28,683 nt of DNA from Pachysolen tannophilus NRRL Y-2460. Its lineage: Eukaryota. The translations under genes were made by a program, and so were the position numbers. The stretch's first letter is position 1; every line of letters begins with the position of its first letter. The stretch spans positions 186,001 through 214,683 of the forward strand of contig KV454012.1 in NCBI GenBank assembly GCA_001661245.1. The letters run 5' to 3'. The notes beneath the pieces are model-generated. The model did no database searches and was not told the origin of the DNA. It saw only the letters and a list, made by a program, of their open reading frames with translations. Shown piece by piece: positions 8,407 through 9,483 of the stretch.

Positions 8407-9483
8407 ATGTCATCATCGGGTCACCAACAAGAACCAAGGAAGATATCCTTTAATGTTAGCGATCATTATCAAATATTAGATATTGTTGGTGAAGGTGCTT
8501 ATGGTATAGTATGTTCTTCTATTCATAAGCCATCACAACAAAAAGTTGCTATTAAAAAAATTGTTCCTTTTGAAAGATCAATGTTTTGTCTTCGAACTTT
8601 AAGAGAATTAAAACTTTTAAAACATTTTAATCATGAAAATATTATAAGTATACTTGATATTCAAATTCCTTATAGTTTTGAATCTTTTAATGAAGTTTAT
8701 TTAATACAAGAATTAATGGAAACAGATTTACATAGAGTAATAAAAACACAAAAATTAAGTGATGATCATTGTCAATATTTTATTTATCAAACTTTAAGAG
8801 CATTAAAAGCTTTACATTCAGCAAATGTATTACATAGAGATTTAAAACCTTCAAATTTATTATTAAATGCAAATTGTGATTTAAAAATTTGTGATTTTGG
8901 TTTAGCTAGATCTGTTGCATCAACTGAAGATAATTTTGGTTTTATGACAGAATATGTTCTGACTCGTTGGTATAGAGCTCCAGAAATAATGTTAACATTT
9001 CAAGAATATACAACAGCTATTGATGTTTGGTCAGTTGGTTGTATCTTGGCAGAAATGTTAAGTGGTAAACCTTTATTTCCTGGAAGAGATTATCATAATC
9101 AATTATGGTTAATTATAGAAATATTAGGTACTCCTTCAATGGAAGATTATTATAGTATTAAATCAAGAAGAGCAAAAGAATATATTAAATCTTTACCCTT
9201 AAGGAAAAAAGTTCCTTTTGATAAACTTTTCCCAAATGCTAATCCTTTAGCAATCGATTTATTAGAAAAATTATTAACTTTTAATCCATCAAAAAGAATA
9301 AAAGTTGAAGACGCTTTAAAACATCCTTATTTAAAATTATATCATGATCCAAATGATGAACCAATAGCTGAAAAAATCCCAGAAGATTTCTTCGATTTCG
9401 ATAAAAAGAAAGATGAATTAAATATTCCAGAATTGAAAAAATTACTCTACGATGAGGTCATGAAACCTTTACAGTACGATTGA
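8407..9483 (+). CDS. CEK1: Mating/filamentation MAP kinase (Cek1/Kss1/Fus3 family), 358 aa
   Basis: [43 protein letters not shown] activation loop. N-terminal [12 protein letters not shown] resembles Candida Cek1. Confidence 0.9.

Follow-up and report, generated by a model that had tools for sequence, protein, structure and literature searches.

The locus described here raises the question of which amino acid is specified by the codon CTG when it falls at a constrained site of an otherwise ordinary protein kinase. It lies in a 28,683-bp stretch of DNA (contig KV454012.1; the whole stretch is called the window below) that carries on its forward strand a complete gene for a mitogen-activated protein (MAP) kinase. 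The gene contains one CTG codon, situated at the P+1 position of the activation segment. The three features concerned are as follows.

8407 to 9483, forward strand: intact gene for a MAP kinase (MAPK) of the Fus3/Kss1/ERK type, 358 codons plus stop, with a single CTG, identified by its matches to Pfam Pkinase, Fus3 and ERK2.

8947 to 8985, forward strand: activation segment T-E-Y-V-(CTG)-T-R-W-Y-R-A-P-E with the TEY dual-phosphorylation site, as translated with NCBI table 26.

8959 to 8961, forward strand: CTG at the P+1 position, codon 185 of the kinase, read as Ala from the sequence, the frame, the alignments to Fus3 and ERK2 and the column of homologous residues.

We consider it about 95% probable that the window derives from a budding yeast in the CUG-Ala clade, in which the nuclear genes follow NCBI translation table 26 and CUG is translated as alanine by a transfer RNA (tRNA) for alanine with the anticodon CAG. 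In the mechanism, which is taken from the literature, a tRNA-Ala whose anticodon has mutated to CAG would decode CUG as alanine.

The nucleotide sequence between 8947 and 8985 is ACA GAA TAT GTT CTG ACT CGT TGG TAT AGA GCT CCA GAA. The CTG is in frame and situated between the V and the T of the activation-segment motif, and the TEY site corresponds to codons 181–183. The protein matches Pfam Pkinase over residues 21–309 (E value 1.7e-66), and its best relatives of solved structure are Fus3 (4.2e-146, query residues 10–352) and ERK2 (6.5e-129). In all three printed alignments to Fus3 and ERK2 an alanine is found opposite the CTG position, which had been entered as X in the searches to avoid bias. 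With the CTG read as Ala, the window kinase contains both the TEY site and the downstream motif of ERK-type MAP kinases. The assignment of codon 185 as the usual P+1 alanine, in a kinase that is normal under table 26, is supported.

The CTG could also stem from an error in sequencing or assembly, or the gene could be a decaying pseudogene. The window is a draft sequence with a gap of 404 N at 9508–9911, right after the kinase gene. Directly behind the TGA stop codon there are 24 A's that run into this gap (9484–9911 together). The ORF (open reading frame) is nevertheless intact, the alignment to Fus3 is full-length, and the motif residues on both sides of the CTG are all conserved. The base calls were compared with sequencing runs from two studies. 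The 104 words of 31 letters sampled from the kinase gene were all present (a fraction of 1.00) in runs X1–X4 (organism A, study P1). For X1 the agreement consists of these words, since between 8911 and 9054 only pieces from paralogs were placed. In run X5, which belongs to a different study (organism B) and is possibly the source of the window DNA, the fraction was 0.98, and an 893-letter contig from this run equals 8612–9483 with no differences, although it may not be an independent witness if X5 is the source. The CTG codons of the window, as far as they could be aligned (8 of 32, codon 185 included), share one pattern, so that a single error is not needed as an explanation. Taken together, these observations leave an error or a pseudogene next to no likelihood.

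A contig of a related organism (X8, organism C) aligns with the window from position 8968 onward, and the alignment is preceded by a loose end of 10 letters, T-GCA-ACT-AGA. If this loose end is colinear with the window, the relative appears to spell Ala-Thr-Arg here, with GCA at the position of the CTG.

To see how far the P+1 alanine is conserved, the kinase was searched against 1.84 billion cluster representatives, and the best 150 of these were aligned, giving 166 kinase-domain rows. The column of codon 185 contains A 90, V 55, S 3, G 3, E 2, T 2, C 2, and N, F, M and Q once each, with 5 gaps and no L (161 residues). Rows with 60% identity or more to the window kinase have 13 A and 1 V, and all four rows at 70% or more have A. 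With the CTG read as Ala, the window motif is the commonest form, present in 49 of the 166 rows, and the next form occurs in 39. Judged from these alignments, the P+1 residue is A in the close relatives and A or V, with a rare S, across the family. The sequence-only reading had placed the CTG in a MAPK activation segment, which the sequence, the frame and the Pkinase, Fus3 and ERK2 matches confirm. It had also called the alanine nearly invariant. That description holds for the close relatives and fails for the wider family, where V is frequent and S occurs.

Leu is never found in this column, while Ser and Val do occur. Codon 185 alone therefore opposes leucine, and it does not separate serine from alanine. 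Under serine decoding (table 12, as in the CUG-Ser1 and CUG-Ser2 clades) the kinase would have a P+1 serine like that of Hog1, and two of the three rows with Ser in fact have the form TGYVSTRYYRAPE. Since the two residues are not separable at this codon, serine is excluded by a tally over several sites instead.

This tally was made within the window, which has a GC (guanine plus cytosine) content of 29.4% and the 404-N gap as its only gap. Its 16 ORFs with 100 codons or more contain 32 CTG codons. CTG makes up 0.54% of 5,933 codons, the longer exon of a beta-tubulin gene included, and it is more frequent (32) than CTA (14) and CTC (11) despite the low GC content. Eight of the 32 CTG codons, located in four genes (those for the MAPK, an aspartate aminotransferase, an LCB3-like PAP2 phosphatase and an MFS transporter), were aligned with 119–166 homolog rows for each gene. 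Besides codon 185 of the kinase, the genes and sites are the following.

1100 to 2845, reverse strand: MFS transporter gene, with CTG at codons 390, 520 and 539.

1229 to 1231, reverse strand: MFS codon 539, the second Ala-dominated column (A 95, V 12, P 3, L 2, S 1 of 119).

1286 to 1288, reverse strand: MFS codon 520, a variable polar column (K 29, S 18, E 17, A 17, R 15 and others, with L 0, of 119).

1676 to 1678, reverse strand: MFS codon 390, a variable hydrophobic column that favours Leu when taken singly (L 42, F 19, I 18, M 10, A 7, S 5 of 119).

10518 to 11780, forward strand: aspartate aminotransferase (AAT) gene, with CTG at codon 79.

10752 to 10754, forward strand: AAT codon 79 (E 40, P 20, A 15, T 14, Q 9, K 9, S 2, L 0 of 119).

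27162 to 28502, forward strand: LCB3-like PAP2 phosphatase gene, with CTG at codons 65, 165 and 295.

27354 to 27356, forward strand: LCB3 codon 65, a variable column (N 32, S 21, D 19, E 10, H 8, A 7, L 4).

27654 to 27656, forward strand: LCB3 codon 165 within L-P-R-P-x-S-P-P, an Arg-dominated column (R 102, K 9, L 3, Q 2, E 1, S 1, A 1 of 119).

28044 to 28046, forward strand: LCB3 codon 295, a Val/Ile column (V 89, I 21, L 7, A 2 of 119).

For each amino acid, the log10 column frequencies were summed over the sites with a small pseudocount. The maximum over the eight sites is reached by Ala with −8.39, followed by Ser (−13.94), Glu (−14.88) and Val (−15.16), and Leu is sixth of 20 with −16.78. 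Alanine is therefore ahead of serine by 5.55 log10 units and ahead of leucine by 8.4. As a control of the method, the same scoring was applied to 1,588 aligned sites, among which 46 codons occur at least 5 times. It recovers the standard amino acid for 44 of them; the remaining two are CTG, for which Ala is obtained, and TGC, for which Ser is obtained from six sites by a marginal difference. At these TGC sites the score is −0.76 per site for Ser and −0.97 for Cys, while TGT (24 sites) is clearly Cys, and the result for TGC is probably noise from the small sample. In the printed alignments to Protein Data Bank entries, AAT codon 79 is opposite P in two and opposite A in three.

If the window followed the standard code, the kinase would contain an unusual substitution of Leu for Ala at P+1. 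Three of the aligned columns contain somewhat more Leu than Ala (MFS 390, LCB3 295 and LCB3 165). The absence of Leu among the 161 residues of the MAPK column is, however, repeated among the 119 rows at both AAT 79 and MFS 520. In 10,000 draws of eight sites from real Leu codons, the difference between the Ala and Leu scores never reached the observed 8.4 (mean −18.6, standard deviation 3.5). The four aligned genes also have no CTG at any of the 89 columns with at least 80% Leu, nor at any of the 56 columns with at least 90% Leu. The 89 columns are encoded by TTA (56), TTG (11), CTT (8), CTA (1), CTC (1) and codons for other amino acids (12). About 3 CTG codons would be expected there under leucine decoding (8 of about 212 Leu codons in the four genes), so this comparison has modest power, at roughly p = 0.05. 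On this evidence leucine decoding is extremely unlikely.

Serine has the second-best score overall, and at two variable columns, LCB3 65 and MFS 520, it equals or exceeds alanine. At MFS 539, on the other hand, a single S stands against 95 A, and at LCB3 295 there is no S. None of 10,000 eight-site draws from Ser codons reached the observed advantage of alanine of 5.55 (mean −8.2, standard deviation 3.9). The nearest other named homologs are from Kuraishia capsulata, Komagataella, Ogataea and Candida arabinofermentans, with 49–69% identity. Kuraishia, Komagataella and Ogataea belong to the Leu2 clade, and the separation of the Ala and Leu2 groups is a deep split within the Pichiaceae, with Pachysolen, Nakazawaea and Peterozyma forming the Ala clade (PMC5951914). 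The nearest named relatives give no more reason to place the window in a Ser clade than in the Leu2 clade. For serine decoding we see only a very slim chance, and the alanine reading is retained.

The database copies of the LCB3-like, MFS and AAT proteins of the window (P0002, P0122 and P0392) provide a further observation. The depositor's translations have A at all seven CTG codons of these proteins, which indicates that the depositor used CUG as Ala and which is at odds with serine. A paralog of the window MFS protein with 54% identity, P0128, is listed as PACTADRAFT_1192 of Pachysolen tannophilus NRRL Y-2460. This name counts against serine decoding and is part of the indirect evidence by which the window most probably stems from P. 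tannophilus. The sequence-only reading had proposed that CTG encodes alanine, and at the scale of the window this is borne out by the eight-site likelihood, the codon controls and the depositor's translations. The tabulation of aligned residues that it had named as a genome-wide check, done here on eight of the 32 window codons, has Ala as the best meaning, with no match among the draws from Leu or Ser codons.

The same reading had described the code as known but rare, and rightly so. CUG as alanine in P. tannophilus was already published in 2016 (PMC4937558), and the present case is that code. The P. tannophilus tRNA-CAG has a G3:U70 pair and A73 and is without a long variable loop (PMC4937558). 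By liquid chromatography coupled to tandem mass spectrometry, alanine was found at 97.2% of the 907 CUG positions for which fragment ions gave full support, with an error level for CUG about that for AUG (PMC4937558). The genome is reported to contain 16,824 CUG codons in 5,288 genes (PMC4937558). A tRNA-Ala(CAG) with no tRNA-Ser(CAG) beside it, or alanine peptides at CUG, both reported there for P. tannophilus, would count against serine decoding as well.

Several observations weigh against the alanine reading. Only two of the eight aligned CTG columns, MAPK 185 and MFS 539, are dominated by Ala. Taken singly, Leu exceeds Ala at LCB3 165 (3 versus 1), LCB3 295 (7 versus 2) and MFS 390 (42 versus 7), and Ser is above Ala at LCB3 65 (21 versus 7) and about level with it at MFS 520 (18 versus 17). 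The CTG set also lies in the low tail of GCN alanine codons. In 10,000 draws from this Ala pool, a difference between Ala and Leu as low as that of the CTG set occurred 125 times, and a difference between Ala and Ser as low occurred 1,236 times. The homolog alignment covers eight of the 32 CTG codons, and the remaining 24 belong to 10 additional ORFs or to regions of poor conservation. The ORFs concerned include those named RING, LRR, CTLH, TRM2, Rho, 15917 and 22134, and most of their CTG codons are beyond the regions matched by Pfam. Because the homologs share ancestry, their rows are not fully independent and the differences in likelihood look larger than they should, and some of the homologs may be mistranslated at CTG codons of their own. 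Within the 28,683 bp there are no tRNA genes according to ARAGORN and no Rfam matches at the gathering threshold, and accordingly no tRNA-CAG.

Part of this evidence could also be explained by ambiguous decoding, in which CTG is read mostly as Ala and, in a substantial minority of cases, as some other residue, comparable to the stochastic use of Ser and Leu in Ascoidea asiatica. The Ala fraction of the homolog columns is 0.22 at CTG sites and 0.57 at GCN sites (Mann-Whitney p = 0.003), in keeping with the low rank of the CTG set among draws from the Ala pool. Mixed decoding would be invisible to alignments, and dual decoding does exist in another yeast (PMC6041473). The near-uniform alanine at CUG and the AUG-like error level in P. 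tannophilus argue against it (PMC4937558). Frequent misreading is also hard to reconcile with a CTG at the constrained P+1 site of an intact kinase, and the lower conservation of the CTG columns is equally explained by a recent birth of these codons at tolerant sites. We regard ambiguous decoding as very unlikely.

How the CTG codons came to be at these positions was considered from the residues that homologs have in place of alanine. At the eight CTG sites, a mean of 54.5% of the non-Ala residues are L, M, V, P, Q or R, the amino acids with codons that differ from CTG by one base, compared with a mean of 22.8% at 96 GCN sites (one-sided Mann-Whitney p = 0.0024). A GCN codon cannot become CTG in one step, and the codons that can do so specify the six amino acids just named. 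The comparison is a lead and no finding, as it includes only the eight sites at 1229, 1286, 1676, 8959, 10752, 27354, 27654 and 28044. The enrichment may be a footprint of codon birth after the reassignment, a tentative explanation to which we give somewhat less than an even chance. In such a process, CTG codons for Ala would have been born by single-base changes from Leu, Val, Pro, Gln, Arg and Met codons at sites where Ala is tolerated. For MAPK codon 185, the path could have led from GCN (Ala) through GTG (Val, tolerated in many MAP kinases) to CTG (Ala). A Val intermediate is plausible at this codon because V is the second commonest residue there, and V is also the second commonest residue at MFS 539. 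If the same were true across the genome, the CTG codons that arose after the reassignment would be mainly one-step births, and the way to sites constrained to Ala, such as P+1 of the MAPK, would have led through a tolerated Val (GTG). We met no comparable neighbour analysis in the text of PMC4937558 available to us, and we make no claim that it is unpublished.

Further features were observed elsewhere in the window. A beta-tubulin gene at 3523–5234 on the forward strand is split by introns. Its first exon consists of four codons, ATG AGA GAG ATT, and is followed by GTAAGT at 3535. A TACTAAC box resembling a branch point and a TAG acceptor immediately precede the main exon, whose reading frame stays open from 3942 to 5234, and a middle exon is expected. 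The main exon (3942–5234) contains no CTG and is therefore uninformative for the CTG comparison, even though beta-tubulin would be the most conserved of the test genes. Within it, an ORF of 300 codons starting with ATG (4332–5234) has no CTN codon at all, with 22 TTA and 2 TTG.

Two neighbouring genes on the reverse strand, at 16862–17821 and 19411–20340, are paralogs with 49% identity (E value 2e-102). One of the pair matches Pfam Bac_rhodopsin (2.3e-15), and we take the pair to resemble the yeast YRO2/MRH1/HSP30 group. When the paralogs are compared, CTG codon 185 of the gene at 16862–17821 is opposite F and CTG codon 297 lies in the unconserved tail, and neither is informative.

An ORF at 22134–22727 on the forward strand, which has no Pfam match, contains five CTG codons in 197 codons. 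Three of these are part of a tandem repeat, CAA TTA CAA CTG CCN (Q-L-Q-CTG-P), beside a stretch rich in Ala and Pro. If the repeat arose by duplication, its three CTG codons count as one event. A short ORF of 117 codons at 21387–21740, also on the forward strand, has a weak match to the N-terminal domain of the meiotic protein Rec114/Rec7 (Pfam PF03525, E value 9.6e-08) and could belong to a longer gene as one of its exons.

The result has practical consequences for annotation. A translation with table 1 or table 11 puts Leu at 32 codons in 16 ORFs, among them the one in the catalytically important loop of the MAP kinase. A window of 29 kb can be sufficient to call the reassignment of a sense codon, provided that several genes are scored together and other codons are used as controls. 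Reassignments of sense codons in nuclear genes are very rare, and CUG to Ala, for which NCBI table 26 exists, is among only a few.

At the level of the protein, the window kinase has the Pkinase domain, the TEY site and the full-length Fus3 alignment in common with Fus3 and Kss1 of Saccharomyces cerevisiae, Cek1 of Candida and ERK1/2. The sole difference is that its P+1 Ala is spelled CTG and not GCN. Fus3, Kss1 and Cek1 are all candidates for its true ortholog. At the level of the code, the CUG-Ser systems (table 12; Ser1, for example Candida albicans, and Ser2, for example Ascoidea and Saccharomycopsis) have lost the same codon from Leu. They share with the window that Ser is tolerated at the MAPK column (3 of 161). 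They differ in that the window CTG codons score 5.55 log10 units better as Ala, at a level that no draw of Ser codons matched. In P. tannophilus, the CUG codons of cytoskeletal and motor proteins are mainly found at conserved alanines (PMC4937558), whereas only two of the eight aligned in the window are in Ala-dominated columns. Nothing observed in the window departs from the code of that species. The window has in common with the table 26 code of P. tannophilus that its CTG codons behave like Ala codons, that its DNA is AT-rich, that CTG is rare, and that the depositor's translations have A at these positions.

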